The notes under the pieces are model-generated. The model was given only the letters and a program-made list of their open reading frames with translations. It was not told where the DNA came from and ran no database searches. A stretch of DNA of 64,000 nucleotides from Pantanalinema sp. (GTDB lineage Bacteria; Cyanobacteriota; Sericytochromatia; S15B-MN24; UBA4093): the NCBI GenBank assembly GCA_036704125.1, contig DATNQI010000076.1:27157-91156 (forward strand), written 5' to 3'. This document shows, piece by piece, positions 6,892-46,164 of this stretch; positions within the stretch are counted from its first letter, which is position 1; each line of letters opens with the position of its first letter. A program made the translations under genes and the position numbers.

Positions 6892-8490
6892 ATGGCCGTA
6901 CGTCTCGATTCGATCCAGTCCTACCAGCGCCCCCGCGTGCTGGCCGGCGGCGGCGTGCAGAAGCCCGGGGTCATCCAGATGCCCTCGCCGAACTTCAACG
7001 ACCGTCCCGGCGGCAGCAAGGACATCTCGGCCATCGTCCTGCATCACACCTCGGGCGGCACCCTCGAGAGCAACGCCAACTACTTCAAGAACCCCTCGGC
7101 CGAGGTCAGCTCCCACTACATCGTGGGCAAGGACGGCCGCATCGTGCAGTCGGTCGCCGACGGCAAGCGCGCCTGGCACGCCGGCACCAGCGACTTCAAG
7201 GGCCGCAACGACGTCAACGACTTCAGCCTCGGCATCGAGATCGTCAACTCGGGCTCCGGCAGCGACCCCTTCACCGATGCCCAGTACCGGGGCCTGATCG
7301 ACCTGGTCGCCTGGATGTGCCAGACCTACAACATCTCGCTCGACCGCATCACCGGCCACAAGGACATCGCCCTGCCCCGCGGCCGCAAGAACGATCCGGC
7401 CGCCAACTTCGACTGGAGCCGCGTGCGCGCGGGCGTCGAGGCCAAGCTCAAGGGCCGCTCGGCACCCGCCGCGAGCCAGCCCAAGCCCGTCGCGAAGCCC
7501 GCCTCGGCTTCGGGCGATCAGGGCCTCTACGCCGTCAAGGACGGCGACACCCTCTACGGCATCGCCAAGAAGCAGCTCGGCAACGGCAACCGCTGGCCCG
7601 AGATCTACGACCTCAACAAGGACAAGATCAAGGACCCCAACGTCATCGGCATCGGCATGGCCCTTCGCATGCCCGGCGGCGCCAAGCCCACCACCACCGT
7701 CCAGGGCACCTACACCGTCAAGGACGGCGACACCCTCTACGGCATCGCCAAGAGGCTGCTCGGCGACGGCACCCGCTGGCCCGAGCTCTACGAGCTGAAC
7801 AAGGACAAGATCAAGGACCCCAACGTGATCTACCCCGGCATGGTCCTGCGCCTGTCGGCCGAGAGCGCCAAGCCCGAGGCCCCCAAACAGGAGACCAAGC
7901 CCGCGCCCCAGAAGCCCGAGCCCCCCAAGGCCCCGGACCTGAGCGCCAACCCCATCGGCAAGCTCCCCACGGTGCCCGGCACCCAGCCCTCGAAGCCCGC
8001 ACAGCCCCCGGTCTCGCAGCCAAAGCCTCCCGTCACCCAGCCCGTGGCGCCCGGCGAGGTCGGTCTTTCCGGCGGCCTGCGCATCGGCGGCGGCCTGGCG
8101 CAGAACTACCTGAACTCGCCCATCTCGAGCGGCGGCATCGCGACCGGCGTGATGAAGGGCGGCTTCCTCTACGGCCTCCCCGGCCTGCTCAAGCGCAACT
8201 TCGCGGTCGCCGCCGTCGTCTCGGGCGCCACCAACCTGATGGACTTCATCAAGGGTCGCGTCACCGGCAAGCAGGCGGCCGCCGGCTTCGCCGCGGACAC
8301 CGCGGCCTACACCGGCATCGGCGCCGCCTCGAGCGCCATCGGCGCGGCCGTCGGCAGCGTGCTCGGCCCGGTGGGCACCCTCGGCGGCTTCCTGGTCGGC
8401 AGCGTCGTGGGCCTCGGCCTCGGCTGGGCCTACGAGAAGTTCGGCCGCAGCAAGCTCGTCGGGGCGATCGCCGGCCTCATCGGCAAGTAA
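6892..8490 (+). CDS. N-acetylmuramoyl-L-alanine amidase (amidase_2/PGRP-like) with two LysM domains, Pro-rich linker and C-terminal Gly-rich hydrophobic domain
   Basis: ATG at 6892 has a ggaggg RBS. Amidase_2 motifs (IVLHHTSGG…AWHAG) and two LysM repeats (YTVKDGDTLYGIAK). The C-terminal ~110 aa are homologous to the protein at 17657..18322. Confidence 0.85.
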   Translation: MAVRLDSIQSYQRPRVLAGGGVQKPGVIQMPSPNFNDRPGGSKDISAIVLHHTSGGTLESNANYFKNPSAEVSSHYIVGKDGRIVQSVADGKRAWHAGTSDFKGRNDVNDFSLGIEIVNSGSGSDPFTDAQYRGLIDLVAWMCQTYNISLDRITGHKDIALPRGRKNDPAANFDWSRVRAGVEAKLKGRSAPAASQPKPVAKPASASGDQGLYAVKDGDTLYGIAKKQLGNGNRWPEIYDLNKDKIKDPNVIGIGMALRMPGGAKPTTTVQGTYTVKDGDTLYGIAKRLLGDGTRWPELYELNKDKIKDPNVIYPGMVLRLSAESAKPEAPKQETKPAPQKPEPPKAPDLSANPIGKLPTVPGTQPSKPAQPPVSQPKPPVTQPVAPGEVGLSGGLRIGGGLAQNYLNSPISSGGIATGVMKGGFLYGLPGLLKRNFAVAAVVSGATNLMDFIKGRVTGKQAAAGFAADTAAYTGIGAASSAIGAAVGSVLGPVGTLGGFLVGSVVGLGLGWAYEKFGRSKLVGAIAGLIGK

Positions 8491-10147: not shown

Positions 10148-12757
10148 TCAGTAGGTCGCGCCGTAAACCCGGCCCGCGTTCGAGCCGGGCGGCAGGGCCC
10201 CGGTAAGCGCGCGGTAGAACACCTTGATGGTGCCGCCCGAGACGGCGCTCGTCGCACCCGCACCGCCGTCGCCGCCGGGAAAAATCGAGAACCCGCCGCT
10301 GTCGATGGCGGCAAAGGAGCCGTTTGCGCCGTTGGCGCCGCCGCGCGCGTCCATGGTGCCCTGCAGGGTCACCTGAGGGGCCTGCAGCACGATCGAACCG
10401 CCCGAGCCCCCCCCTCCGCCGCCGGAGCCTGGGGTGTTGTTGGCCCCGCCCCCGCCGCCCGCTGCCCCCACGACGATGAGCTTGGCCGTGTTCGCGACGC
10501 TCAGGGCGCTTCCCGCCTTGAGGACGATGGCCCCGCCGCCGGCTCCTCCGCCGGCACCGGCCGTGTACTCCCCGGCGCCGCCGAGCCTCGCGGCGTTCCC
10601 GCCCGCGCCGCCCGAGCCCAGGACCCAGCTCGCATCCGTCGAGACATCGGCCGAGGGCAGGTAGGATCCCGCCGGACCGCCCTTCCCGTCCTCGGCGATG
10701 GCCAGGGTCCCGGGCGCCCAGCCCAGCCCGCGCGTCGCAGCGCCGAAGACGCCGCCTCCCGTGCCACCGGCCCCGCCGCCGCCCCGGCCCGCGCTGCCGC
10801 CCGATCCGCCGCCGCCCGCGCCATAGCCCGCCGCGCCGGTGCCACCCCCGTTGTCGTCATAGCCGCCCAGGCCGCCACCGTAAGGGGCGGCCCCGCCGGC
10901 GCGCGTGGGGATGGCCAGGGGGCCCCAGCTCGGGTTGCCGTAGGCTTCGCCGCCCGCCGTCGTCGCATCGTTCCCTGCCGAGGCCGTCGCGACGGGGCCA
11001 TCGGCGCCCCCGCCGCCCGCGCCGCCGAAGTAGCCGCCGCGACCGCCCGCGCCCGAGACGCAGCCTCCGCCGCCGGCCGCCCCGTAGCCGAGGCCGCCGC
11101 TGGTGAACCCGCCGTTGCCCGAAAGGCCCGCGACGCCGCCGCGACCGTACTCGGCCGTGATGGAGCCGCCGGGGCCGCCGCCGTAACCGCGCCCCGCCCC
11201 GTCGATGGTGCCGTTCACGGTGATGGTGTTGGCGTAGAGACCGAGCCAGCCGTCCTTGGGGGAGCGGACCCGCTGATCGTACATGGAGGCGCCTTCCCCG
11301 ATGGCGTCCGCCCTTCCGAAGGGCTGCACGTAGGTCGTCGTCCCGTTCGCGATCGAAACCGTCTCGAAGTAGTGGTTGCCGAAGAACTGGGTCTTGTTGC
11401 TGCCTGCCGGGAAGTTGACCGAGTAGCCCGCGTCCGAGGCGTTGCGCACCCCGCTGGTCGTCGCCCCGTCCCAGGAAGCCCCCTCGGCCACCTGGACCCC
11501 GTCGCTGATGACGGTCGTCCCGTTCCCGGTCGCGAGCACCGGCGTCACGCTCACGTAGTAGGTCGCCCCCGCCCAGGCCCCCGCCAGGCTGAGGGCGTCC
11601 GTCCGGCAACTGGTGCCCAAGCCCACGGGCCGGTCGGCCATGACGTCGCCGGCGCCGGGGGTCGTGCCGACCCGCACCACGTAGCCCGACGCGTTGGGAT
11701 TGGCGCTCCAGTTGGCGTAGAGGTAGCCCGCGCCCGAGGTCACCGGGCTGTACTGGTAGGCGACGTCCACTGCCGCCGAGGTGGTGCCGTCGTTGACCTT
11801 GAAGGGCGAAACCGTGAAGGCGGGCCCCTGGTAGACGAGGCTGCCCACCTGGACGGTGACGGCCCCGGCACCGAGCCCGCGCATGGACACGTCGAGGCGG
11901 GTCGGCGAGGCGCTCGTGACCACGCCGGGCACCCCGTTGAACTTGACCACGTTGTTGGCGGGCGTGGGATCGAAGCCCACGCCGAGCAGGGTCACGCTCG
12001 CGCCCTCCATCAGGGCGGCGAGGGACGATTGGTCGGTGACCTTGGGGCCGCCCGTGATCCGGAAGCGTCCGGTGGCGCTCTCGTAGGCCACGTCGCCCAG
12101 AGGGTCGCGGTCCTGGGCGATGAGCGCGTCGACCAGAGGAAGGACGGCGGCGTACTCGGCGACCGAGCAGTTGGTCACGGGCGAGAAGACGTCCGGGGCG
12201 CCCGTCACCACGCGGCCGATCAGGCTCGCGGGGCTCACCTGCAAGGCGGGCGCGAGGGCGGCCTTGAGGCCCGCGATGATCGAAAGAGCCGTGCTCGATC
12301 GCCCGAGCATGATGCTCGACCCCGTGATGCTCTGCCACGTCCCGTCCGCGTGGGAGAGCACGGTGCGAAGGGCCGCGGTGTTGCTGCCCGCCTGGTTCCC
12401 GTTGAGCCCCTTGACCGCTTCGAGGTAGTAGGGCTGCTCTCCCGGCACGAAGCCCGGGATGCTCAGCGAGAAGGCGCCGGTCGTCGGGTCGGTGACGGCC
12501 GAGGCGATGGTGCGGTTCTGGGTCGGATCGATCAAGGAGACGGTGGCGGCGAGGGTCACGTCAGCGAGTGCCGCCTGCGTGGTGCGCCCGAGGGCGGCAG
12601 GCTCCACCCGGCCGCTGAGCGTCACGGCCTCGCGCGCCGCGGGCATTGGCAGCTGCGCGCTCGGCGTCGTGGCCGGACGGATGCAGCCGGCCAGGAGCGC
12701 CAGGACGATCGCGAGCGACAGCGCCAGGCGCCGCAGGGCATCAGTAGGTGGCCGCAT
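10148..12757 (-). CDS. large lipoprotein paralog B: CarbopepD_reg-like, IPT/TIG and FN3-like domains, then ~350-aa glycine-rich (PGRS-like) C-terminal region
   Basis: 869 aa with lipobox LLAGC. Domains are recognised by eye. The C-terminus is Gly/Ala tracts interspersed with short hydrophobic strands and ends …GGTIKVFYR…AGRVYGATY. It overlaps the upstream paralog stop by 17 nt. Confidence 0.7.
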   Translation of the reverse strand: MRPPTDALRRLALSLAIVLALLAGCIRPATTPSAQLPMPAAREAVTLSGRVEPAALGRTTQAALADVTLAATVSLIDPTQNRTIASAVTDPTTGAFSLSIPGFVPGEQPYYLEAVKGLNGNQAGSNTAALRTVLSHADGTWQSITGSSIMLGRSSTALSIIAGLKAALAPALQVSPASLIGRVVTGAPDVFSPVTNCSVAEYAAVLPLVDALIAQDRDPLGDVAYESATGRFRITGGPKVTDQSSLAALMEGASVTLLGVGFDPTPANNVVKFNGVPGVVTSASPTRLDVSMRGLGAGAVTVQVGSLVYQGPAFTVSPFKVNDGTTSAAVDVAYQYSPVTSGAGYLYANWSANPNASGYVVRVGTTPGAGDVMADRPVGLGTSCRTDALSLAGAWAGATYYVSVTPVLATGNGTTVISDGVQVAEGASWDGATTSGVRNASDAGYSVNFPAGSNKTQFFGNHYFETVSIANGTTTYVQPFGRADAIGEGASMYDQRVRSPKDGWLGLYANTITVNGTIDGAGRGYGGGPGGSITAEYGRGGVAGLSGNGGFTSGGLGYGAAGGGGCVSGAGGRGGYFGGAGGGGADGPVATASAGNDATTAGGEAYGNPSWGPLAIPTRAGGAAPYGGGLGGYDDNGGGTGAAGYGAGGGGSGGSAGRGGGGAGGTGGGVFGAATRGLGWAPGTLAIAEDGKGGPAGSYLPSADVSTDASWVLGSGGAGGNAARLGGAGEYTAGAGGGAGGGAIVLKAGSALSVANTAKLIVVGAAGGGGGANNTPGSGGGGGGSGGSIVLQAPQVTLQGTMDARGGANGANGSFAAIDSGGFSIFPGGDGGAGATSAVSGGTIKVFYRALTGALPPGSNAGRVYGATY

Positions 12758-15344
12758 AGACCCTCCCTGCCGTCGTCAGCGTCGGCATCGCCCCGATGAA
12801 GCTACGGTAGAAGACCTTGACGGTCCCGCCGGTGAGCGCGCTCGCCCCGCCGTTGCCGCCGTCACCGCCGGGCCCGCCCGCGACGGGATTGCCGGTTCCG
12901 CCTCCCGTGCCGCCCAGGCAGCTCACGACGCCCGAGAGGTCGATCGTCCCGGCATCCATGAGGATCGTCCCCCCCGATCCTCCTCCTCCGCCGCCGCCCG
13001 AGGGCGAGTTGTTGGCGGCACCACCTCCGCCGGCCGCCCCGACCGCGATCAAGCGCCCCGAGACGGTCAAGGTCCTGGCCTTGAGGATGATGGCCCCGCC
13101 ACCTGCCCCCCCGCCGCCGCCCGTCGTACGCTCGGTCGTCATCTGGACGCCCGGGTTGCCCCCGGCCCCGCCGGACCCCAGGACCCAGGAGCGATCCGTG
13201 GTGGTATCGGGCGAGGGCAAGTAGCGGCCGGCGGGCCCGCCCAGCCCGTCCTGCGCCTTCGCCAGCACCCCGGGCTCCCAGCCGAGCCCGCGCGTGGCGC
13301 CGAGCGAGTAGCCGCCGCCGGTGCCGCCGGCGCCGCCGCCGCCGGCGTAGGTCGTGTTGCAGCCGCCGACCCCTCCGCCACCGCCCGCCCCGTAACCGGA
13401 GCCGCCGCTCCCGGGCGAGTTGTCGACGCGGCCGCCGGATCCGCCGCCGTACGGCAGGGCCGCGACGGGAGGAAAGGTCGGCGAGCCGGTGATGCCGCCC
13501 TGGCCCGTCGCGTCGCTGCCGCTGCCGCCCACCACCGGCCCGACGGCCCCGTAGCCGCCGTTGGCCCCCGCGCCGGCGCCGCCGAAGTAGCCGCCGCGCC
13601 CGCCGTTGGAATCCCCGAGGCAGCCGCCTCCCTGGCCGCCACCGCCCGCCGCCCCGAAGCCCAGGCCGCCGAGGCCCGCGCCCTCGGTTCCCCCGTTGCC
13701 CGAGAGGCCTCCGATCCCGCCGTGGCCGAAGGTGGCCACGCTGTCCGAGGCCGTCAAGCCGGGTCCCCCGCCGTAGCCGCGCCCGGCCGCGTCGATGGCC
13801 CCGCTCACCGTGAGGGTGTTGGCGTAGAGACCGAGCCAGCCGTCCCTGGGGGTGCGGACCCGCACGTCGTTCATGGAGGCGGCCTCCGTGATGTTGTCCG
13901 CCTTGCCGAAGGGCTGCACGCTCACCGTGGCGTTCGAGGGGATCGAGACCGTCTCGAAGTAGTGGTTGCCATAGAACTGGGTCTTGTTGCTGCCCGCCGG
14001 GAAGTTGGCCGAGTAGCCCGCATCCGAGGCGTTGCGCACCCCGCTGGTCGTCGTCCCGTCCCAGGAGGCCGCCTCGGCCACCTGGACCCCGTCGCTGGTG
14101 ACGGCGGTCCCGTTGCCGGTCGCAAGCACCGGCGTCACGCTCACGTAGTAGGTCGTCCCCGCCCAGGCCCCGTCCAGGCTCAAGCCGGTCGCCTGGTAAT
14201 CCGTCACGGCGCCGACCGACACCTCGGCCTTCACGTCGGCGGCCCCCGGCGTCTTGCCGATCCGCAGGCGGTAATCCGTGGCGTTCGGGTTGGCGCTCCA
14301 GTTGGCGTAGAGATAGCCCGCCCCCGCCGTCACCGGGCTGTACTGGTACAGGTTGTCCACCCCGATCGAGCGGGTGCCGTCGTTGAGCGCGAAGGGCGAA
14401 ACCGTGTAGGGCGGCCCCTGATAGATGGTGCTTCCGACCTGCACCGTGACGGTCCCGGCGCCGAGCCCGCGCATGGAGACCGTGAGGCGCGTCGGGGTCG
14501 CGGCGGTGACGACGGCACTCGCCCCGTTGAACTTGACGGTGTTGTTGGCCGGGGTGGGATCGAAGCCGCTGCCCTCGAGGATGACGCTCGCACCCTCCAT
14601 CAGGCCGGTCAGGGGCGAGGTGGACGTGATCCCGAGCCCCGCGTTCAAGAGGAACCTGGCGTTCGCCGTGTCGTAGGCGATCGCCCCGAGGGGATCGAGG
14701 TCCCGCGCCAGGGCCGCGGCGACCACCTCGCGGGCGCCGTCGAACTCGGGCCCCGTGCAGTTGGGGATGGGCGAGAAGACGTCGGGCGAGCCGGGCGCCA
14801 GGCTCCCCAGAAGCGCGCTCAGGGCCGGGCGCTGGGGAGCGGGGAGAGCCTGCTTCAGGCTGACGATCGCGCACAGGGCGGTGGTCGAGAGGCCGAGGCG
14901 CACCGGCCCCGGCTGGGAGTTGGTCACCGAGCGCCACCCGTCGCCTTGCGCCGCGATCGCGGTGCGCAGGCGCGCCACGCGCTGCCCCACCCGGTTGGAG
15001 CCCAGGCGCTTGAAGGCCTCGAGGTAGTAGGTGGCGCTGCCCGGCTGGAAGCCGCCGTAGTAGAGGGCGAAGGCGCCGTCCGCATCGGTGGTCGCGGTCG
15101 CCACCGTGCGATTGGTCGCAGGGTCGATGAGCACGACCGTCGCGGCCTGGGCCACCTCCGCGGCCTGGGCCTGAACCTCGCGGCCGAAGGCATCGAGCTC
15201 CACGCGGCCCCGGATGACCGCGGCGGCGGCCTCGCTCGTCGCAGGCGCCGGGCTTCCCGCGTGCGGGAGGGGCGCCCCGAGGCAGCCCACCAGAAGAAAG
15301 AGACACAGCGCGAAAACCCACTGTCTGGAGCGTCGCATCCTCAC
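12741..15344 (-). CDS. large lipoprotein paralog A (same architecture as 10148..12757)
   Basis: 867 aa with lipobox LLVGC and the same domain order. The conserved C-terminus reads …GGTVKVFYR…AGRVYAATY. DNA segments are ≥90% identical to paralog B. Confidence 0.7.
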   Translation of the reverse strand: MRMRRSRQWVFALCLFLLVGCLGAPLPHAGSPAPATSEAAAAVIRGRVELDAFGREVQAQAAEVAQAATVVLIDPATNRTVATATTDADGAFALYYGGFQPGSATYYLEAFKRLGSNRVGQRVARLRTAIAAQGDGWRSVTNSQPGPVRLGLSTTALCAIVSLKQALPAPQRPALSALLGSLAPGSPDVFSPIPNCTGPEFDGAREVVAAALARDLDPLGAIAYDTANARFLLNAGLGITSTSPLTGLMEGASVILEGSGFDPTPANNTVKFNGASAVVTAATPTRLTVSMRGLGAGTVTVQVGSTIYQGPPYTVSPFALNDGTRSIGVDNLYQYSPVTAGAGYLYANWSANPNATDYRLRIGKTPGAADVKAEVSVGAVTDYQATGLSLDGAWAGTTYYVSVTPVLATGNGTAVTSDGVQVAEAASWDGTTTSGVRNASDAGYSANFPAGSNKTQFYGNHYFETVSIPSNATVSVQPFGKADNITEAASMNDVRVRTPRDGWLGLYANTLTVSGAIDAAGRGYGGGPGLTASDSVATFGHGGIGGLSGNGGTEGAGLGGLGFGAAGGGGQGGGCLGDSNGGRGGYFGGAGAGANGGYGAVGPVVGGSGSDATGQGGITGSPTFPPVAALPYGGGSGGRVDNSPGSGGSGYGAGGGGGVGGCNTTYAGGGGAGGTGGGYSLGATRGLGWEPGVLAKAQDGLGGPAGRYLPSPDTTTDRSWVLGSGGAGGNPGVQMTTERTTGGGGGAGGGAIILKARTLTVSGRLIAVGAAGGGGAANNSPSGGGGGGGSGGTILMDAGTIDLSGVVSCLGGTGGGTGNPVAGGPGGDGGNGGASALTGGTVKVFYRSFIGAMPTLTTAGRVYAATY

Positions 15345-16327
15345 CTCCCGGTCTCCACGCCGCCCGCCACGACGCCCGTGACCGTGAAGACGGGCCCATC
15401 GATCGACAGTCCCCCGATTTTCAGGCCGACCCGGCCGCTGGTGGCGCCTGCCGGGACGGTGGCGACGAGGGTCGTGGCGCTCACGGAGTTCACGAAGGCG
15501 CTCACGCCGTTGAAGGTCACCGAGTTGCTCGCGGGCGTCGGCAAAAAGCCCGAGCCTATTACGGTCACGAGCGTGCCCACGCTCCCGCTCGCCGGGCTCA
15601 CGCTCGCGAGGGTCAGGGGCTGGTTCACCTGGACCCAGGCATCCGGCAAGACCAGTCCGACGCCGGCGACCGGATCCAGGTCGGCCGCAAGCGCCTGTTT
15701 GACCAGGATCAGCAGCGCGTCGAAATCCTGTCCCGACACAGCGGCGGCCGGCGCGTAGCTCGCGGACGCCCCCGGGGTCACGCGCCCGATGAGCGAGGAG
15801 AAGTCGAGGGGGGCGGGGTTTTCGTTGCGCAGGGCCGCCCCGATGGCGAGCGCCGTGGTCGCCTCGTCGACGACGATGCCCTGGTTGGGCACGGTGTTGG
15901 TGAGCGACATCCAGCCCTTGTTGTACTTGACGAGGGTGCGCACGCGCGCCGCCTGGTGACCCGGCATGTTGGAGGCCAGGCCCTTCACCGCCTCCAGGTA
16001 GTAGGTGGCGGCCGGATCGGGCTTGAACGAGCGGGGGAACGTCAGCTGGAAGGATCCGCTCGCGGTGGTCAGGCTCGTGACGACGGTGACGTTGAGCGCG
16101 GCCTGGATCAAGGAAACGGTCGCCGCGTCCGCCACCTGACCGATCTCGGCCTGCACGCGGCGCTCCGGGAAGGACACCCTTCCGGAAAGCGGCTCGCTCG
16201 TTTCAGGCGCGCGGACGGGACTCGCCTGGCAAGCCACGAGCAGGAGCGCGAGAAGGCCGGCGCCGAGCAGCGCGCGGCGCGGCTTCCCCTCGAGGCATCG
16301 ATGCCGGAACCATCCGAAGGCGGCCAT
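15341..16327 (-). CDS. truncated paralog: N-terminal CarbopepD_reg/IPT module only
   Basis: 328 aa with lipobox LVACQ. Homologous to the first ~330 aa of the two large paralogs. ATGA overlap with the downstream gene at 15341-15344. Confidence 0.65.
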   Translation of the reverse strand: MAAFGWFRHRCLEGKPRRALLGAGLLALLLVACQASPVRAPETSEPLSGRVSFPERRVQAEIGQVADAATVSLIQAALNVTVVTSLTTASGSFQLTFPRSFKPDPAATYYLEAVKGLASNMPGHQAARVRTLVKYNKGWMSLTNTVPNQGIVVDEATTALAIGAALRNENPAPLDFSSLIGRVTPGASASYAPAAAVSGQDFDALLILVKQALAADLDPVAGVGLVLPDAWVQVNQPLTLASVSPASGSVGTLVTVIGSGFLPTPASNSVTFNGVSAFVNSVSATTLVATVPAGATSGRVGLKIGGLSIDGPVFTVTGVVAGGVETGR

Positions 16328-17656: not shown

Positions 17657-18322
17657 CTACTGGGCCGGGGGAACGGTGGCGGGCTGGGTGGCCTGGCTGT
17701 TCATGCCCTTGGCCGAGGCCATCATGCTCTGGATGCCCTGCTGGACCTGACCCGAGAAGCTGGTGCGGACCTTGTCCTCGTAGAATTTGCCGAGCAGGAG
17801 GCCGACGCCGGCGCCTGCCGCGATGCCGAGGGCGGTGCCCAGGAAGGGGATGGGGATCAGGCTGCCGATCATCCCGCCGATGGTGGTCGAGGCGGCGCCG
17901 ATGCCCGTGTAGGCGGCGGTGTCGGCGATGAAGTTCCCGGCGGCCTGCATCGGCTTGACCTTGCCGGTCATCATCTCGTAGAGGTTGCTGACGCCCGAGA
18001 GCAGGGCCGAGATGGCGAAGTTGGACTTGAGGGCGCCGACGAAGTTCTTGAGGCCGCCGCTCAGGGTCCCCCAGATGCGGCTACCGATGCCGCTCGAGAA
18101 GGTCATGCCGCTCGCGGCGTTGGCGACCATGCTGGCGCCGACGGCCTCGGTCCGGGCGCCTTCCGCCACGGTCTTGGCGATCTTGAGCGTGTCGAAGGTC
18201 TTGATCACGGGCGCTGCCATCCGCATGCCGGCCATGTTGTCGGTGTTGGCCGCAGGCAGGAAGGCCTTGGCCTTGGCGGCCATCGTGCTGGTCAGGTTCG
18301 CGTTGTTGCTCTGAATCGCCAT
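17657..18322 (-). CDS. hypothetical protein sharing a Gly-zipper-like hydrophobic domain with the C-terminus of the LysM amidase
   Basis: 221 aa, low Arg content (real-looking in a high-GC genome), with an aaggagg RBS. Residues ~75-180 align with amidase residues ~420-525 (NFA[IV]…ADTAAYTGIGAAS…LG…GLG…YE). Confidence 0.6.
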   Translation of the reverse strand: MAIQSNNANLTSTMAAKAKAFLPAANTDNMAGMRMAAPVIKTFDTLKIAKTVAEGARTEAVGASMVANAASGMTFSSGIGSRIWGTLSGGLKNFVGALKSNFAISALLSGVSNLYEMMTGKVKPMQAAGNFIADTAAYTGIGAASTTIGGMIGSLIPIPFLGTALGIAAGAGVGLLLGKFYEDKVRTSFSGQVQQGIQSMMASAKGMNSQATQPATVPPAQ

Positions 18323-18527
18323 CGTGGGCCTCCTTGGTCAGTGACCAACCGCAGGGTGTTTTTCCTTCACACCCCTCTTATCGGGGGGTGGGGGAGGCAA
18401 TTCGGTAAAGAAGAGCCTAAGACATGCGTAAGTCGGGTCTAAGGTTTTAAATCCAGATCAAATCGGCGCTCGCGCCGTTGCTTGACACTCCGTTTCTCGT
18501 TCAGCTATCATCAGCCTCACGCCGCGT

Positions 18528-18601
18528 TGGGGAGTAGCCAAGTGGTAAGGCATCGCTCTTTGGAAGCGACTACCGTAGGTTCGATTCCTACCTCCCCAGC
18601 C
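18528..18601 (+). tRNA. tRNA-Gln(TTG): tRNA-Gln (anticodon TTG)
   Basis: Cloverleaf built by hand: acceptor TGGGGAG/CTCCCCA, anticodon stem TCGCT/AGCGA with loop CTTTGGA, T-arm GTAGG-TTCGATT-CCTAC. It starts UGGGG and ends CCCCAGCC like E. coli tRNA-Gln. Confidence 0.85.
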
Positions 18602-18605
18602 TAAA

Positions 18606-18636
18606 GCCCCCTGATCCGGAACTCGGATCAGGGGGC
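18606..18636. repeat. 13-bp-stem hairpin (tRNA terminator); copy 1 of a hairpin pair bracketing the vapBC-like module
   Basis: gccccctgatccg-gaact-cggatcagggggc. It is nearly identical to the hairpin at 19470..19504. Confidence 0.5.
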
Positions 18637-18725: not shown

Positions 18726-19103
18726 TCAAGCGGGCAGAATCGCCACCTCGTAATGCCGGAAGCGCTCGTCTCGACTGACGAGCACCATCTCCTCCGCCTG
18801 CGCCTGCGCTATCAGCATCCGATCGAACGGATCGTCATGATGTCGTGGTAACGAGCCGGCCCGCAGAGCGTGAGCCCAGGCGATCGGAAGCGGCTCGAAC
18901 CCCCCTTCCTCCAGCGCCCCTATCAGCTCACCGGGGATATCCAGCTTCCCGATCGCTTGCTTGATGGCGATCTCCCAGACGCTGGCGGCGCTCAGGAATA
19001 CCTGATTCTCGCCCTTGGAGATCGCCTCGCGGGCCGCCCTCGAAAGGGTGGGATCATCCGCCAACCACCACAGCAGGGTGTGGGTGTCCAAGAGCAGCTT
19101 CAA
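18726..19103 (-). CDS. vapC: type II toxin-antitoxin toxin, PIN domain (VapC family)
   Basis: 125 aa. The N-terminus MKLLLDTHTLLWW and acidic PIN residues are typical of VapC. It overlaps the antitoxin stop by 4 nt. Confidence 0.88.
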   Translation of the reverse strand: MKLLLDTHTLLWWLADDPTLSRAAREAISKGENQVFLSAASVWEIAIKQAIGKLDIPGELIGALEEGGFEPLPIAWAHALRAGSLPRHHDDPFDRMLIAQAQAEEMVLVSRDERFRHYEVAILPA

Positions 19104-19339
19104 GGCAGCTCACCCCGGAACGCCGCCGCCATTTCCCCCGGAAGCTCATCGAAGTCGGGCGCGATCTTGACCTTGTCGCGCCAGAGCCCCGGCACCCGCG
19201 AGGGCTGCTCGGCTCGGAAGGGGACAAGACGGGCAACCGGTTTTCCGGCACGCGCAATCAGGACATCCTCGCCCGCCTCTGCTCGTTCCAACAAGCGAGA
19301 GAGGTGGGTCTTCGCCTGATGAACATTCACAACGGCCAT
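19100..19339 (-). CDS. type II antitoxin, Phd/YefM family
   Basis: 79 aa. MAVVNVHQAKTHLSRLLERAEAGE…ARAGKPVARLVP is the Phd/YefM fold signature. It is translationally coupled to vapC. Confidence 0.8.
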   Translation of the reverse strand: MAVVNVHQAKTHLSRLLERAEAGEDVLIARAGKPVARLVPFRAEQPSRVPGLWRDKVKIAPDFDELPGEMAAAFRGELP

Positions 19340-23211: not shown

Positions 23212-23245
23212 TTGACCTTCCCCCCACCGGGAAGGTTTAGGCTGA
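23212..23245 (+). promoter_or_regulatory. CueR-type MerR-family promoter/operator upstream of copZ
   Basis: TTGACCTTCCccccaccGGGAAGGTTTAGGCT. The -35 is TTGACC and the dyad ACCTTCC/GGAAGGT sits in a long spacer. This is nearly the same arrangement as E. coli PcopA. Confidence 0.6.
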
Positions 23246-26160: not shown

Positions 26161-27408
26161 ATGCCAAAACCCGCCAAGAGCCCCGGCATGCTCTTCATCT
26201 TCATCACGGTGCTGCTGGACATCGTCGGGATGGGGATCCTCATCCCCATCACGCCCCAGCTCGTCGCCCAGTTCGTGGGCGGCGATCTCTCGGACGCCTC
26301 GCGCTTCTACGGGCCCTCGATCGCCCTCTACACCGCGATGCAGTTCATGTGCGCCCCCATGCTCGGCGCGCTGTCCGATCGCTTCGGGCGCAAGCCCATC
26401 TTGCTGCTGTCGCTCCTGGGCACGGCGCTCGCCTACCTGATGACGGCCTTCGCCCCCAACCTGTGGTGCCTGTACGCCGCCCGCATGCTGGGTGGCATGG
26501 CCGGCGCCAGCATGACGGTCGCCACCGCCTACATCGCGGACGTCAGCAGCCCCGAGAACCGGGCCCAGAACTTCGGGATGCTGGGGGCGGCCTTCGGGAT
26601 CGGCTTCATCATCGGGCCGGCGCTCGGCGGGATGCTCGGGCACTTCAGCCTGCGGCTCCCCTTCCTCGTCTCGGCCGCGGTGTCGCTCATCAACTTCACC
26701 TACGGGCTCTTCGGCCTCCCCGAGTCCCACCGCCTCGAGAACCGCCGGGCCTTCACCTGGGCCAAGGCGAACCCGCTCTCCTTCGTCCCCATGCTCCGGA
26801 AGTACCCCCAGATCATGGGGGTGGTGGCGACCTTCATCCTGGTGGGGCTGGCGCAACAGTGCCAGCAGAGCAACTGGGTGCTGTACACCACCCTGCGCTT
26901 CAACTGGTCGCCGATCGAGACCGGGGCGTCGCTCGCGGTTGCGGGAATCTGCCTGGCCCTGGTCCAGGGCGGGCTGATCCGGGTGATCCTGCCCCGGCTC
27001 GGAGAAAAGCGGGCGATCCTGTACGGTCTTGCGCTCCTCGCGGTGTCGATGATGCTCTTCGGCTTCGCGACCCGGGGCTGGATGATGTACGCGGTCACGA
27101 TAGTCTCCAGCGTGGCTGCGATCGCGGGCCCCGCGGCCCAGGCCATCATCTCGCGCCAGGTCGGCCCCGAGGAGCAGGGCGCCATCCAGGGCTCGCTGAC
27201 CAGCCTCATGAGCCTGACGGGCGTCGTCGGCCCCATCGTTGCCAACCAGCTGTTCGCCACCTTCACCGCCGCCGCGGCCCCCATCCGGGTGCCGGGAGTC
27301 GCCTTCTTCCTCGCGGCGCTGCTCGTCGGGCTGAGCCTCGTGAACATGATCCGGTACTTCTCGAAGCAGCCGCAGGCGGCCGTGGCGCCGCAGCCCGCCC
27401 AGGTCTAA
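26161..27408 (+). CDS. MFS transporter (TetA/multidrug-efflux-like, 12 TM)
   Basis: ATG at 26161 has an aggag RBS. MFS motif A-like [11 protein letters not shown] and a polytopic profile. Confidence 0.85.
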
Positions 27409-27423
27409 GCTCTGCCTGAAACC

Positions 27424-27480
27424 TCCCCGCCCCCCGGTGGGGCGGGGTCGGGGGTGGGGGGTTCTAACCGCTCCGAGTCT
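27424..27480 (+). repeat. intergenic GC-hairpin repeat element, copy 1
   Basis: CCCCGCCCCcCGGTGGGGCGGGG hairpin followed by a gggggtgggggg…ccgctccgagtc tail. About 85% identical to 62896..62950. Confidence 0.65.
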
Positions 27481-27508
27481 CCAGGCGAGGGCATGAGGAA
27501 CTTGATTT

Positions 27509-27633
27509 TATCCCCCCACCCCTCACATCCAACAAAACCGGGCATGTGTTGTGGTGGCCGCTGTAAGCGGCTTGATGGAACAGTTTCGTTAGACGTTCCC
27601 CCTAGCCCCGCCCCACCGGGGGGCGGGGAATCA
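27509..27633 (-). repeat. reverse-orientation copy of the same element, interrupted by a ~75-bp insertion flanked by a 5-bp direct repeat (cccct)
   Basis: tatccccccacccct (27508-27522) and ctagccccgccccaccggggggcgggg (27603-27629) together form the reverse complement of the element. The intervening 27523-27602 is extra and contains its own stem GCCGCT-gta-AGCGGC. Confidence 0.5.
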
Positions 27634-27670
27634 AGCGGATGCCAATCTCAATTCGAGTCTGCTTGGCGGG

Positions 27671-28105
27671 CTACAGCAGGAAGAGCCCGCCGACCACGAC
27701 CAGCGCGGCGCCCACGATCTGCTTGGCGCTGAGGGTCTCCTTGAGGCCGAACACCCCGAACAGCATCGTCACGACCGGCGCCGCGCTGAACAGGAAGGGA
27801 AAGACCCGCGAGACGTCGGCGCGCTGCAAGAGCAGGTAGTAGCAGTACTGCGCGAGCAGCATCGAGGTGATCCCGCTCGCCAAAAACAGGCCTATGGCGA
27901 GCGGCGACATCTCCCGGACCATGCGGGCGCCCTTGCCGATGGTGAGCGCGAGCGGCAAGGCGATCGCCGAGACCCCAAGCGTTCGGATGGCGATCCCGAC
28001 CAGGGGCGAGGCCGAGAAGTGCGAAAGGGCCAGCTTGTCGAAGATGGGAATGAGCCCCCAGAGGAAGATGGTGACGAGGGTCAACAGGATCGTCTGAAGG
28101 CTCAT
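27671..28105 (-). CDS. small EamA/DMT-like membrane protein
   Basis: 144 aa, 4-5 TM. A half-size EamA domain. Confidence 0.55.
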   Translation of the reverse strand: MSLQTILLTLVTIFLWGLIPIFDKLALSHFSASPLVGIAIRTLGVSAIALPLALTIGKGARMVREMSPLAIGLFLASGITSMLLAQYCYYLLLQRADVSRVFPFLFSAAPVVTMLFGVFGLKETLSAKQIVGAALVVVGGLFLL

Positions 28106-28422: not shown

Positions 28423-31400
28423 TCAGTGCTCCAGGCCGGACGGGACGAGCGTCCCGCGCTTGAGCTGCCGGGTCTTCCAGAGGGTGAAGAGGACGGGGAT
28501 CACGATCAGGACGAGCACCGTGGAGGTGAAGAGCCCGCCGATCATGGGAGCCGTGATCGGCCTCATCAGGTCAGATCCGGTTCCCTGACTCCACATGATA
28601 GGCATCAGGCCGATGAAGTCCACTGCCACCGTCATCAGCTTCGGTCTCAGACGGAAAACAGCCCCCTCCATCGTCGCCGTTTCGATGTCGGCCGGGGTGA
28701 TGGCGCCCCCCAAAAGCATCCGGTCAAGGGCCTCGTTCAGGTACACGAGCATGACCACGCCCGTCTCGACGGCGACCCCCGCCAGCGCGATGTAGCCGAC
28801 CCAGACGGCGACGCTGAAGTTGTAGCCGAGCACCTTCTGGAGCACGAGCCCCCCGATCAGGGCGAAGGGGATGGAGAGCACGACCATCGCCGACGAGGCC
28901 AGCGACCGGAAGGTCAGGTACAGGAAGAACAGGATGACCGCGAGCACGATCGGCACCAGGACGCGCAGCCGCGCGGCCGCCCGGCTCTGGTTCTCGTACT
29001 GGCCGCTCCAGGAGAGATAGGTCCCCTTCGGCAGCTCGAGGTCGCTAGAAAGGCGCGCCTTCGCCTCATCGACGAAGCTGCCCATGTCCCGGCCTCGGAC
29101 GTTCAGGAACACGATCGAGCGCAGAAGACCGTTCTCGCTGTTGATCATCGGAGCACCCGTCGTCAAGCGCACGTCGGCGAGCTGGGAGAGGGGGATCTGG
29201 GCGCCCGTGGGCGTGGGCACCAGGATGCTTCCGAGGGACTCGGGGTCCCCCCTCAGCTCCCGGGCGTAGCGGACCCGCACGGGGAAGCGCTCGCGGCCCT
29301 CGACGGAGGTGGTGAGGTTCATCCCGCCGATGGCCGTCTCGATGACGTCCTGGACGTTCTCCACCATCAGGCCGTAGCGGGCGATCGCCTCCCGGTTCGG
29401 GGTGATGTCCACGAACCGGCCGCCGATGACCCGCTCGGCGAAGACGTCCTGGGCCCCCGGGATCCCCTTCAGGATGCCCTCGGCCTTGACCGCCAGGTGC
29501 TCCAGCTCGCGCAGGTCCGAGCCGTAGATCTTCAGGCCGAGATCCGTCCGGACGCCCGTGGCCAGCATGTTGATCCGGTTGATGATGGGCTGGGTCCAGC
29601 CGTTGCTGACGCCCGGGATCGAGAGCTTATGGTTCATCTCGGCGATCAGGTCGTCCTTGGGCTTGCGCGGGTCGGGCCACTCCGAGCGCGGCTTGAGGTT
29701 GATGATCGTCTCGATCATGCTGACCGGCGCCGGATCGGTGGATGTCTCGGCGCGTCCCACCTTGCCGAGCACCGACTCCACCTCGGGGAAGGCGCGCAGG
29801 ATCTTGTCCTGGACCTGCAGGATGCGCTTGGCCTCGGTGATGTTCACGTCGGGCAGGGTGGTCGGCATGAAGAGCAGGCTCCCCTCGTCGAGCGGGGGCA
29901 TGAACTCGTTTCCGATGCTCATGGCGAGCGGCACGCTCAAAACGACGCTCGCCACGGCCAGACCCACGGTCATCTTCTTGAAGCGAAGGGCCGTCGTGAG
30001 CACGGGCTTGTAGAGCCGGATGAAGAAGCGCGAGACGGGGTTCTCCTCCTCGGGCCGCACCCGGCCGCGCAAGAGGAAGCTCATGAGCACCGGGACGACG
30101 GTGATGGCGATGACGGCCGCCCCCGCGATCGCGAAGCTCTTGGTGAAGGCCAGGGGATGGAACATCTTCCCCTCCTGCCCCTCGAGCATGAAGACCGGCG
30201 TGAAGGAGAGCAGCACGATGAGCAGCGAGAAGAAGATGGGTCGCCCCACCTGCTTGGCCGAGACGATCACGGTCTCGAGGTAGTCCGGCTCCTCACCCGC
30301 CTCCCGCTGCTCGGCCAGGTGGCGGTACGCGTTCTCGACCATGACGATGGCGGCGTCCACCAGCACGCCCACGGCGATCGCGACCCCGCCCAGGCTCATG
30401 ATGTTGCTGGTGATGCCGAACTGGCGCATCAGGATGAAGCTCACCAGCACCGCGACGGGCACCGAGAGGACGATGATGAGCGCCGAGCGGATGTGGAAGA
30501 GGAAGGCCAGCACCACGAGGCTGACGATGACCGCCTCCTCGACCAGCGCCTCCTTGAGGGTGTCGACGGCGCGCTCGATGAGATCCGAGCGGTCGTAGGC
30601 CGCATGGACGCTCACGCCCGCGGGCAGGCCCTTCTCGAGCTCGACGAGCTTCGCCTTGACCCGGTCGATGACCGCCTTGGCGTTCTCGCCGTGGCGCATC
30701 ACGACGATGCCGCCGACGACCTCGCCATCGCCGTTCTTGTCGAGGACCCCGCGCCGCGTCTCGGCGCCAAGCTGGACGCTCCCCACGTTGGCGATCGTCA
30801 CCGGGATGCCGCCCGGAGCGGTCTTGACGACGATCTTCTCGAGGTCGGAAGCGCTCTGGATGTAGCCCCGGCCCCGGACCGAGTACTCGGCCGCGTTCTG
30901 CTCGACCAGGCCGCCGCCCACCTCGTTGTTGCTCATCCGGACGGCATCCGCCACTTCCTTCAGGCTGACGCCGTAGGTGAAGAGCTTGGCCGGATCGACC
31001 TCGATCTGGTACTGGCGGACGAAGCCCCCGATGGAGGCCACCTCGGCGACGCCCGGCACGCTCTGGAGCTGGAGGCGCAGGTACCAGTCCTGGATGGCGC
31101 GCAGGCGGCCGAGATCGAGGCCCTTGCCCTCGACGGTGTACCAGTAGACGTGGCCCACCCCGGTCCCGTCGGGACCGAGCGCCGGGGTCACCCCGGCGGG
31201 GAGGTTGCCCGACACCGAGGCCAGGCGCTCCAGGATGCGGGTCCGCGCGAAGTAGAGGTCCGTCTTGTCGTCGAAGATCACGTAGATCATCGAGAAGCCG
31301 AAAGCCGAGCTGGCCCTTACCGCCTTGACGTCGGGCAGCCCCTGGAGGCTCGCCGAGAGCGGGTAGGTGATCTGGTCCTCGATGACCTGCGGGCTGCGCC

Positions 31401-31563
31401 CCGGCCACTCGGTGAAGACGATGACCTGGTTCTCGGACAGGTCCGGGATCGCATCCAGCGGGGTCCGGGTGATGGACCAGGTGCCCCAGCCGATCAGGCC
31501 GACCAGCGCGATGATGACGATGAAGCGGTTGCGAACCGACCATTCAATGATGCGCTCGATCAT
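28423..31563 (-). CDS. cusA: CusA/CzcA-family heavy-metal efflux RND permease
   Basis: 1046 aa with the HME-RND signature and a 12-TM plus large periplasmic-loop architecture. Start overlaps the cusB stop (ATGA). Confidence 0.95.
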   Translation of the reverse strand: MIERIIEWSVRNRFIVIIALVGLIGWGTWSITRTPLDAIPDLSENQVIVFTEWPGRSPQVIEDQITYPLSASLQGLPDVKAVRASSAFGFSMIYVIFDDKTDLYFARTRILERLASVSGNLPAGVTPALGPDGTGVGHVYWYTVEGKGLDLGRLRAIQDWYLRLQLQSVPGVAEVASIGGFVRQYQIEVDPAKLFTYGVSLKEVADAVRMSNNEVGGGLVEQNAAEYSVRGRGYIQSASDLEKIVVKTAPGGIPVTIANVGSVQLGAETRRGVLDKNGDGEVVGGIVVMRHGENAKAVIDRVKAKLVELEKGLPAGVSVHAAYDRSDLIERAVDTLKEALVEEAVIVSLVVLAFLFHIRSALIIVLSVPVAVLVSFILMRQFGITSNIMSLGGVAIAVGVLVDAAIVMVENAYRHLAEQREAGEEPDYLETVIVSAKQVGRPIFFSLLIVLLSFTPVFMLEGQEGKMFHPLAFTKSFAIAGAAVIAITVVPVLMSFLLRGRVRPEEENPVSRFFIRLYKPVLTTALRFKKMTVGLAVASVVLSVPLAMSIGNEFMPPLDEGSLLFMPTTLPDVNITEAKRILQVQDKILRAFPEVESVLGKVGRAETSTDPAPVSMIETIINLKPRSEWPDPRKPKDDLIAEMNHKLSIPGVSNGWTQPIINRINMLATGVRTDLGLKIYGSDLRELEHLAVKAEGILKGIPGAQDVFAERVIGGRFVDITPNREAIARYGLMVENVQDVIETAIGGMNLTTSVEGRERFPVRVRYARELRGDPESLGSILVPTPTGAQIPLSQLADVRLTTGAPMINSENGLLRSIVFLNVRGRDMGSFVDEAKARLSSDLELPKGTYLSWSGQYENQSRAAARLRVLVPIVLAVILFFLYLTFRSLASSAMVVLSIPFALIGGLVLQKVLGYNFSVAVWVGYIALAGVAVETGVVMLVYLNEALDRMLLGGAITPADIETATMEGAVFRLRPKLMTVAVDFIGLMPIMWSQGTGSDLMRPITAPMIGGLFTSTVLVLIVIPVLFTLWKTRQLKRGTLVPSGLEH

Positions 31564-34167: not shown

Positions 34168-34339
34168 GAGGGAGGTCCTTCCAGAGGAGGTGAACTACTA
34201 AGTTGATTAGTACACCCGAAAGGGGCACGAGCGCAAGCCCTTTCCGAAATCGTTCGCCGTCATCCTAAACCTTCCCGTCAGGTGGAGGGTCAACCCTTCA
34301 GGGGTCATCGTGGGGTTTGACCTGGAGCGAATCAGGGCA

Positions 34340-45587: not shown

Positions 45588-46043
45588 CTACTTGTGGAAC
45601 ACCGTGGGCAGCTCCACCGCCGGGACGTGGAACTGGCCGGCCGCCACCCCCGCGATGTGCTTGCAGGGGGTGTTCGGCGATCGCTCCATGCGATCCACCC
45701 TCTCCTTGTAGGTCCGCAGGTTGTCGCGGAAGGCGACCAGCTCCGCGATGCGCCGGTCGAGCTCGACAAGGCGCGCGTCGAGCAGGTGGCTCACGTGGTC
45801 GCACGGCGCCTCGCCCGCGCCCCATGCCATCACGATGTCCTTGATGTCGTGCAGGGAGAGGCCCAGCGCCTTGGCCCCCAGGATGAAGCGCATGCGCTCC
45901 GCGTCGGACTCGACGTAGAGGCGATAGCCCGACTCCGAGCGCTGCGGCTCGGATAGCAACCCCAGCGACTCGTAGTAGCGGATGGTCTTGGGGTTCACCC
46001 CGACCCGCTTGGCCAGCTCCCCGATGAACAAGCCCCCTTCCAT
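45588..46043 (-). CDS. cueR: MerR-family metal-responsive regulator (CueR-like)
   Basis: HTH GELAKRVGVNPKTIRYYESLGLL, a dimerisation helix and C-terminal Cys residues. It is divergent from copA, with a CueR box in between. Confidence 0.8.
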   Translation of the reverse strand: MEGGLFIGELAKRVGVNPKTIRYYESLGLLSEPQRSESGYRLYVESDAERMRFILGAKALGLSLHDIKDIVMAWGAGEAPCDHVSHLLDARLVELDRRIAELVAFRDNLRTYKERVDRMERSPNTPCKHIAGVAAGQFHVPAVELPTVFHK

Positions 46044-46091
46044 GCTTTTCCCTCCTCGGCCCCGGTCGCATAATGGACGGCGCGCTCCCCC

Positions 46092-46125
46092 TTGACCTTC
46101 CAGTCAACTGGAAAGAGTACCTTGG
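46092..46125 (+). promoter_or_regulatory. CueR-type promoter/operator of copA
   Basis: TTGACCTTCCAGTcaACTGGAAagagTACCTT. The -35 is TTGACC. The dyad CTTCCAGT/ACTGGAAG lies in a long spacer. Confidence 0.6.
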
Positions 46126-46164
46126 AGTCGTTGCCCCCGCAAGCCGCCGTGAAAGGAATCCGCC

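Follow-up and report, generated by a model that had tools for sequence, protein, structure and literature searches.

Three exact copies of one perfect 23-nt hairpin, CCCCGCCCCCCGGTGGGGCGGGG, lie between genes in a single 64-kb stretch of bacterial DNA, and they raise the question of whether such copies are signals that the host keeps at the ends of its genes or small elements that have come in by insertion. In this study, we analysed the whole stretch (64,000 nt; hereafter, the window) together with loci fetched from related and unrelated genomes. No occurrence of the hairpin was expected in the window on the basis of dinucleotide-preserving shuffles. The host genome is Sericytochromatia-like, and the evidence set out below makes it probable that the three copies (A, B and C) are recently inserted, non-coding palindromic mobile repeats akin to REP, REPIN and MITE elements. 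The repeat family is new for this lineage; to our knowledge, no such family has been described in Sericytochromatia.

The repeat unit and its three copies

The genes that flank the copies and the parts of each unit are located in the window as follows.

26161 to 27408, plus strand: MFS transporter gene; its stop codon (27406-27408) adjoins the leader of copy A
27409 to 27488, plus strand: copy A, whole unit (nhmmer E 3.5e-22)
27409-27424, plus strand: leader of copy A, GCTCTGCCTGAAACCT, beginning right after the MFS TAA stop
27425-27447, plus strand: hairpin of copy A, exact CCCCGCCCCCCGGTGGGGCGGGG
27450-27461, plus strand: G-tract of copy A, GGGGGTGGGGGG, after the spacer TC
27462-27488, plus strand: tail of copy A, TTCTAACCGCTCCGAGTCTCCAGGCGA
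27484 to 27664, minus strand: copy B, whole unit, interrupted, tail-to-tail with copy A
27511 down to about 27484, minus strand: tail of copy B
27512-27523, minus strand: remaining G-tract of copy B
27524-27598, no strand assigned: inserted block of 75 nt within copy B
27599-27605, minus strand: spacer and start of the G-tract of copy B
27606-27628, minus strand: hairpin of copy B, exact CCCCGCCCCCCGGTGGGGCGGGG
27629-27664, minus strand: leader of copy B
27409 to 27664, no strand assigned: whole insertion of A, B and the block, about 256 nt relative to the empty sites of relatives
27671 to 28105, minus strand: EamA-family transporter gene, convergent with the MFS gene, with copy B downstream of it
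62109 to 62873, plus strand: nusB, whose TAA stop directly precedes copy C
62874 to 62957, plus strand: copy C, whole unit (nhmmer E 2.1e-27)
62874-62895, plus strand: leader of copy C
62896-62918, plus strand: hairpin of copy C, exact CCCCGCCCCCCGGTGGGGCGGGG
62922-62932, plus strand: G-tract of copy C, after the spacer CTA
62933-62957, plus strand: tail of copy C, containing TATAAT at 62934-62939
62969 to 64000, plus strand: ftsY, with its ATG at 62969, extending past the end of the window

Each unit is about 80 nt in length and consists, in this order, of a leader of 16-36 nt, a 9-bp GC hairpin, 2-3 nt, a G-tract and a tail of about 25 nt. The G-tract, GGGGTGGGGGG, is a near-copy of the 3′ arm of the hairpin and is present 3′ of all three hairpins, and the tails are AT-richer and less conserved (TTCTAACCGCTCCGAGTC in copy A, ATATAATCGTTCCGAGTC in copy C and ATAAAATCAAGTTCC in copy B). 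From the hairpin through ...CCGAGTC, copy A shares 48 of 55 positions (87%) with copy C, comprising 23/23 in the hairpin, 0/3 in the spacer, 11/11 in the G-tract and 14/18 in the tail, which agrees with the value of about 85% given for the copies at 27424 and 62896 in an initial annotation made from the sequence. The left part of copy B is identical to copy C at 33 of 33 positions. The likeness of A and C therefore goes beyond the GC hairpin, a limit that the annotation had named as the outcome that would speak against a repeat family. A search with a profile of the units (nhmmer) revealed no further copy in the 64 kb, and the count of three refers to the window.

Copies A and B form an inverted doublet with 31-nt arms that are 90% complementary. 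The predicted single-strand fold of A and B together has an energy of -142.8 kcal/mol (z -5.8); in it the G-tract of A is paired to the C-tract of B, and pairing between the two hairpins is possible as well. The suggestion that the two opposed copies could form a large cruciform is not supported, given that such a structure is unlikely across a 144-nt spacer in duplex DNA and that the long-range pairing is predicted for the single strand only. Copy C occupies the interval between the stop codon of nusB (62871-62873) and an SD-like GGAG with its spacer (62958-62968). The position of copies at the 3′ ends of the MFS and nusB genes had been described before, and both gene identities match ours.

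The NusB homologues place the lineage of the window in or near Sericytochromatia: the named matches, at about 50% identity, are 'Candidatus Sericytochromatia bacterium' and 'Cyanobacteria bacterium REEB65', and closer relatives are 64-95% identical. The EamA protein, on the other hand, is 100% identical to P0121 in an NCBI MAG labelled Pantanalinema sp., while the NusB relatives are Sericytochromatia. Pantanalinema is a photosynthetic cyanobacterium and Sericytochromatia are the non-photosynthetic sister class of cyanobacteria; the MAG may be mislabelled or a chimeric bin. The cyanobacterial HIP1 octamer, GCGATCGC, is present in 49 copies in the window, where base composition predicts 2.6, and is similarly dense in the relatives looked at (L129, L134 and L136; 14 in 20.8 kb and 19 in 20.4 kb), and we found no literature that pairs HIP1 with Sericytochromatia.

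Other inverted sequences are also present in the window. Mutually inverted copies of TTGACCTTCC-N-GGAAGGTTTAGG at 23212-23245 and 34260-34293, which we take to be putative CueR/MerR-type operators, flank a copper/heavy-metal efflux region with an RND pump (28426-31563), CusB-like and OEP genes and HMBD proteins; the region also includes a MerR regulator (45591-46103) and P-type ATPases (46153-51264). A 94-nt inverted repeat (8271-8364 and 17855-17948; 80% complementary, 9.5 kb apart) surrounds two large duplicated Gly/Ala-rich ORFs on the minus strand (875 and 1153 codons; 10151-16202), which share 300-nt segments with 86% identity and neither of which has a Pfam match.

Insertions relative to related genomes

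The spacer between the MFS and EamA genes is 262 nt in the window but only 6-12 nt in four related contigs, namely L134 and L135 (EamA 91% identical), L136 (92%) and L137 (94%). In L134, L135 and L137 the convergent MFS and EamA stops are 6 nt apart, and their alignment to the window (alignment A1) contains conserved coding flanks on both sides of a clean gap of about 256 nt; in L136 the EamA gene lies 12 nt from a different downstream ORF. The MFS stop codon is TAA in the window and TGA in the relatives. Similarly, the nusB-ftsY spacer is 95 nt in the window versus 1-10 nt in four related contigs (10 nt in L138 and L139, with NusB 76% identical; 9 nt in L129, 71%; 1 nt in L132, 64%). A closer relative, L133 (95% identical), does carry the element after nusB, and its leader is closer to that of window copy B (24/36) than to that of copy C. 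Presence of the element is thus polymorphic, with both loci empty in four related contigs each and the nusB site occupied in one 95% relative. These comparisons provide direct evidence that both window loci are insertions relative to the relatives. Taken together with the likeness of the copies in G-tract, tail and leader, the empty sites bear out the earlier proposal of a REP/MITE-like repeat family.

The sequence GGAGACCCCCC, just 5′ of the ftsY ATG, resembles the short spacers of the relatives (GGAGGCGCC and GGCGCCTACC), so that the inserted copy C spans about 62874-62957 and does not include the Shine-Dalgarno sequence. Copy C was also considered as the source of the ftsY Shine-Dalgarno and rejected for the same resemblance of GGAG and its spacer to the ancestral spacer. 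At all gene-proximal ends the junction reads (T)AA followed by GC, and no target-site duplication was found around the A, B and C units when the junctions were compared with the empty sites (alignments A1 and A2). Short-read contigs break at the repeat, which matters for assembly; L001 and L133 both stop within it, as would be expected if the sequence is repeated in those genomes. About 100 kb of the relatives' DNA contained no further full copy and one cousin module only, in L129. This module, CCCCCACCCC-TAT-GGGGCGGGGG-TCA-GGGGGCGGGGG, lies at 11960-12000 in a convergent ftsY/NT5C spacer and has the same design of a hairpin and a repeated G-arm as the window copies, with a different sequence.

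On the reading that the copies are mobile repeats, the units would have entered two very short spacers right after stop codons, copy C between nusB and ftsY, and A and B, tail-to-tail as a REPIN-like inverted doublet, between the MFS and EamA genes; copy B would later have been struck by a second insertion of 75 nt that duplicated 5 nt. We infer that the copies owe their movement to an enzyme acting in trans, whose gene would lie elsewhere in the genome and which would recognise the hairpin and the G-tract, probably on single-stranded DNA as for REP/RAYT. The inserted copies may be tolerated passengers that provide, at most, a stable 3′ stem-loop on the upstream transcript. Small selfish repeats are probably active in Sericytochromatia and can wedge themselves into spacers of 1-12 nt, even that of the adjacent nusB and ftsY, with the genes not destroyed. 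Recombination or repair, instead of transposition, may also have brought about the insertions. No transposase, RAYT or DUF559 gene was found among the 48 ORFs called in the window (family matches at E<=1e-5, or <=1e-3 for ten of the ORFs); RAYT genes are single-copy, and the lack of a RAYT match in 64 kb carries little weight. Rfam recognised only a tRNA in the whole window, the best sub-threshold match scoring 22 bits against a gathering score of 64.

A direct repeat, CCCCT (27519-27523 and 27599-27603), borders the block that interrupts copy B on both sides. After removal of the block and one CCCCT, copy B reads ...GGGGCGGGGCTAGGGGTGGGGGGATAAAATC against ...GGGGCGGGGCTAGGGGTGGGGGGATATAATC in copy C, and the restored sequence is CTAGGGGTGGGGGGATAAAATC against CTAGGGGTGGGGGGATATAATC in C. 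The description of B as a copy split by an insertion of about 75 nt with a 5-nt CCCCT duplication is therefore accurate, and the stem GCCGCT/AGCGGC noted inside the block is real (GCCGCT-GTA-AGCGGC). The fold of the block is not exceptional (z -1.55). The block ends are weakly inverted (ACATCCAACAAAAC and GTTTCGTTAGACGT; 11/14 by eye). A miniature element repeated elsewhere had been envisaged, yet neither blastn-short against the window and about 1.1 Mb of fetched loci nor a scan of viral contigs revealed a second copy of the block.

It is quite possible, if somewhat short of probable, that the block is filler DNA left by microhomology-mediated repair of a break in the G-tract, with CCCCT being the microhomology and not a target-site duplication. 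G-rich structured DNA is prone to breaks, and the uniqueness of the block in all sequence searched, its weak terminal inverted repeat and its unexceptional fold all fit such an origin. However, transposition yields just such a clean duplication, of 5 nt here, between flanks that are otherwise intact, and no donor sequence for a filler was found in the window. In addition, REP-type repeats are known targets of IS insertion (PMC1525189).

Possible roles of the hairpin and its 35-nt core

The place of the hairpins behind genes could reflect host selection for 3′-end signals, either terminators or mRNA-stabilising stem-loops, with the likeness among copies arising by convergence on a strong GC hairpin. 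All three hairpins begin shortly after a stop codon (16 nt for copy A after the MFS gene, 42 nt for copy B after the EamA stop at 27671-27673 and 22 nt for copy C after nusB), the hairpin comes first in the upstream transcript and its predicted fold is very stable (-20.7 kcal/mol for the hairpin alone). REPs also stabilise upstream mRNA (PMC3733652). Nevertheless, we consider this explanation quite improbable. No U-run is present 3′ of any hairpin, the terminator scan gave 0 at both loci, and the sequence after the hairpins is G-rich and not U-rich (tails UCGGGGGUGG and CUAGGGGUGG), so the copies resemble an intrinsic (Rho-independent) terminator in having a stable GC hairpin soon after a stop but differ from it in what follows the hairpin, where a terminator would have a U-rich run within 0-2 nt. 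Moreover, the likeness extends to the G-tract, tail and leader, and the relatives manage with spacers of 1-12 nt at both sites, which indicates that no terminator is needed at either. A strong terminator between nusB and ftsY would also cut off the adjacent gene, which in the relatives is probably co-transcribed. The proposal that the copies double as terminators is accordingly not upheld, and the hairpins should not be named terminators in annotation.

A tRNA gene elsewhere in the window (18528-18599) is followed by a 12-bp GC-rich hairpin, CCCCCTGATCCG-GAAC-TCGGATCAGGGGG, without a T-run (18528-18636 in all), which fits a genome whose 3′-end hairpins are generally without U-tracts. An occurrence of GGGGTGGGG near this tRNA, at 18385, was examined and rejected as a copy of the repeat. 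Next to the tRNA gene, where the GC content of the window is lowest (about 61%, 18-20 kb), there is a PIN-domain gene (18729-19109) that probably encodes the toxin of a toxin-antitoxin pair; it may represent a small horizontally acquired islet.

Copy C might alternatively serve as an outward promoter or 5′-UTR module, with a TATAAT -10 box and a leader driving ftsY. The hexamer reported earlier does exist at 62934-62939, 30 nt upstream of the ftsY ATG, and an insertion that parts ftsY from nusB might require a new promoter. There is, however, no -35 element and no TG extension, and the scan for sigma-70 promoters (-35 and -10 hexamers at 16-18 nt spacing) gave 0 at both loci; the hexamer stands alone, and a promoter role is not supported. 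The homologous hexamer is TTCTAA in copy A and ATAAAA in copy B, and the SD-like GGAG and spacer by the ATG lie outside the unit and resemble the ancestral spacer of the relatives. We think this reading very improbable.

A scan of species-representative genomes with the pattern CCCCGCCCC-N5-GGGGCGGGG-N3-GGGGTGGGG revealed that the 35-nt core of the repeat is carried by at least 120 loci in other genomes, where it forms the ends of short hairpin-rich elements. Among the matches listed, most are from Terricaulis, Hyphomonadaceae and Caulobacteraceae MAGs, with some from Chloroflexota and others. In the alphaproteobacterial matches listed, the core is the first of three hairpins, and a long second hairpin is closed by the G-tract and a downstream CCCCACCCC. 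At the centre of the stem, G:C and T:A replace each other by covariation; among the matches listed with the stems CCCCTCCCC/GGGGAGGGG, the third segment mostly stays GGGGTGGGG (8 of the 11 that have one), which indicates covariation at the stem centre together with sequence conservation of the G-tract. Of the cores among the matches listed, about 13% lie inside long open frames. An exact search of metagenomes with the 23-mer gave seven contigs, none from the source organism. One of the unrelated metagenome contigs, L122, has the same hairpin, loop and inverted-doublet layout with 40-nt inverted ends and no 75-nt block. The core pattern was absent from viral contigs (scan) and the A+B composite from plasmids (blastn). 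The likeness between the window core and the alphaproteobacterial core could be convergence, judging from the low complexity of the core (C4GC4 / G4CG4 / G4TG4).

The conserved G-tract invites the idea of a structural switch, in which the C-rich arm would pair with either the adjacent G-arm or the distal G-tract and a competition between hairpin and G-quadruplex would regulate replication, transcription or translation. The four G-runs GGGGCGGGG-NNN-GGGGTGGGGGG constitute a predicted canonical four-tetrad G-quadruplex motif, the candidate G-quadruplex-forming sequence being GGGGCGGGGCTAGGGGTGGGGGG. By the criterion of four runs of at least 4 G with loops of 1-7 nt, matches begin at 27439 and 62910 (predicted G4Hunter scores 3.22 and 3.04), so that, of only three such motifs in the 64 kb, two fall in copies A and C. 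When the hairpin and G-tract are folded by themselves, pairing of the 5′ arm with the distal tract is predicted to be the optimum (-23.5 versus -20.7 kcal/mol), and in copy C the sequence UGGGGGG could, by prediction, pair with the CCCCCCA immediately 5′ of the ftsY AUG and thereby enclose the GGAG. On the opposite side, the third segment usually keeps T in the stems with a T:A centre and hence fails to follow the 5′ arm in covariation; its partner in full elements is instead the downstream CCCCACCCC; and the G4 motif of copy B is broken by the 75-nt insertion, which is tolerated there. Such a switch is, in our judgement, very improbable, and the G-tract as an alternative, attenuator-like partner of the 5′ arm was rejected as a conserved role for lack of covariation with the stem.

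Relation to known repeats and to DUF559-bracketed elements

The mobile-repeat reading finds its closest parallels in REP, BIME and REPIN sequences, which are mobilised by RAYT (TnpA-REP) Y1 transposases in E. coli and Pseudomonas (PMC3116915, PMC3337134, PMC3733652). A RAYT-associated REP is a GC-rich, imperfect extragenic palindrome of 20-40 nt, and the window has a 23-nt hairpin in three intergenic copies. Such REPs number tens to hundreds per genome; the count here is three in 64 kb. Like such repeats, these copies are found downstream of genes and between convergent genes, both as an inverted doublet (A+B) and as a singlet (C), and their presence differs between related genomes; the ability of an inverted doublet to form a long hairpin, a REPIN trait, is seen in A+B, the one doublet. 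On the other hand, neither GTAG nor CGTC adjoins the stem in the window copies, its neighbours in A, B and C being ...ACCT, ...GATT and ...TATT on the 5′ side and TCG, CTA and CTA on the 3′ side (GTAG occurs 9 nt upstream of copy C and is absent from A and B). The window copies possess, in addition, a G-tract module and a tail of about 25 nt.

The CGTC-tagged REPs of alphaproteobacteria, among which are the Rickettsia palindromic elements (RPE), are without a dedicated transposase (PMC3733652, Di Nocera et al.). The cousins with the 35-nt core include tagged copies, in which ttCGTC directly precedes CCCCGCCCC (L011, L043, L077 and L083), and alphaproteobacterial cousins can, like RPEs, sit in frame inside genes such as glyS, whereas the window copies are untagged, extragenic and from another phylum. 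Bacterial MITEs (Correia/NEMIS, ERIC, RUP and Nezha) are likewise non-coding elements of about 80-260 nt adjoining genes. Terminal inverted repeats of their kind bound the A+B composite alone (31-nt ends, strong fold), and presence or absence at orthologous sites, as seen at both loci, is a MITE trait too. Unlike MITEs, the units have no target-site duplication (the nested 75-nt block alone has one, of 5 nt), and there is no related IS with matching terminal repeats, the ends of the window element being themselves hairpins. Elhai and colleagues are said to have described, in 2008, nested small dispersed repeats of cyanobacteria, which share with copy B that a repeat was hit by a second insertion. 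In the case of IS that target REP sequences, too, the repeat is a landing site, as copy B is here for the block (Tobes & Pareja, 2006; PMC1525189). In comparison with both systems, the block is short, at only 75 nt, is without coding capacity and has no known relatives.

Among the matches listed, 17 fetched alphaproteobacterial loci hold a small DUF559 gene (Pfam E 1e-21 to 1e-35), and 15 of these 17 genes are bracketed on both sides by inverted modules made of a GC hairpin, 3 nt and a G-rich near-copy of the 3′ arm. The bracketed units are often wedged between co-transcribed genes (glyQ/glyS, the site in six loci, or pntAA/pntAB), with an open frame that crosses both hairpins. Loci with such DUF559 genes include the following.

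L011, 6596-7107
L043, 6303-6814
L083, 2566-3077
L088, 2153-2702
L087, 2616-3173
L016, 5228-5794
Others: L018, L056, L077, L120, L098, L104 and L107, and the isolates L140, L141 and L142

All three plasmid-borne DUF559 genes examined in cultured isolates lie between hairpin repeats. In Sphingomonas parapaucimobilis the gene is located between pntAA and pntAB and has the clearest inverted hairpin and G-rich ends of the three; in Novosphingobium sp. THN1 it lies between 40-nt inverted repeats with other hairpins adjoining; and in Azospirillum lipoferum 4B it is preceded by a short element of three hairpins and followed by one hairpin. The Vsr clan, of which DUF559 is part, also counts a group I intron homing endonuclease among its members (PMC3424549), and we found no literature linking DUF559 to palindromic repeats.

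The window copies share 35-37 nt with the DUF559-bracketing module and are nearly identical there to L124 and L122. From this resemblance in sequence, the window repeat might belong, as a member without a gene, to a class of palindromic mobile elements that spans phyla and has so far gone unrecognised, and whose full-length members would encode a DUF559 (Vsr-like PD-(D/E)xK) nuclease and not a RAYT, a proposal that we regard as unlikely. Given that searches of the window and of 167 kb of Sericytochromatia DNA found no DUF559 gene, what links the window to DUF559 is only the shared 35-37 nt core, which is of low complexity and for which convergence is possible. Were the proposal true, DUF559 would gain a function and the 'orphan' REP-like repeats, both CGTC-tagged and untagged, would gain a mobilising enzyme; by connecting the window repeat to the very abundant DUF559-bracketing elements of alphaproteobacteria, the core offers a testable candidate mover of RAYT-less REP-like repeats.

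Short gene-less alphaproteobacterial elements are also found in frame inside protein-coding genes, where they add about 40 residues (e.g., SPSPLAGEG...TPTPNPAPQGGGES). They were seen in glyS in L013, L046, L056 and L120, and also in L008 and L050 and in L014 and L040; the in-frame glyS examples read ...GRQLY[...TPTPNPAPQGGGES]IAAAIEDH, as in the RPEs of Rickettsia.
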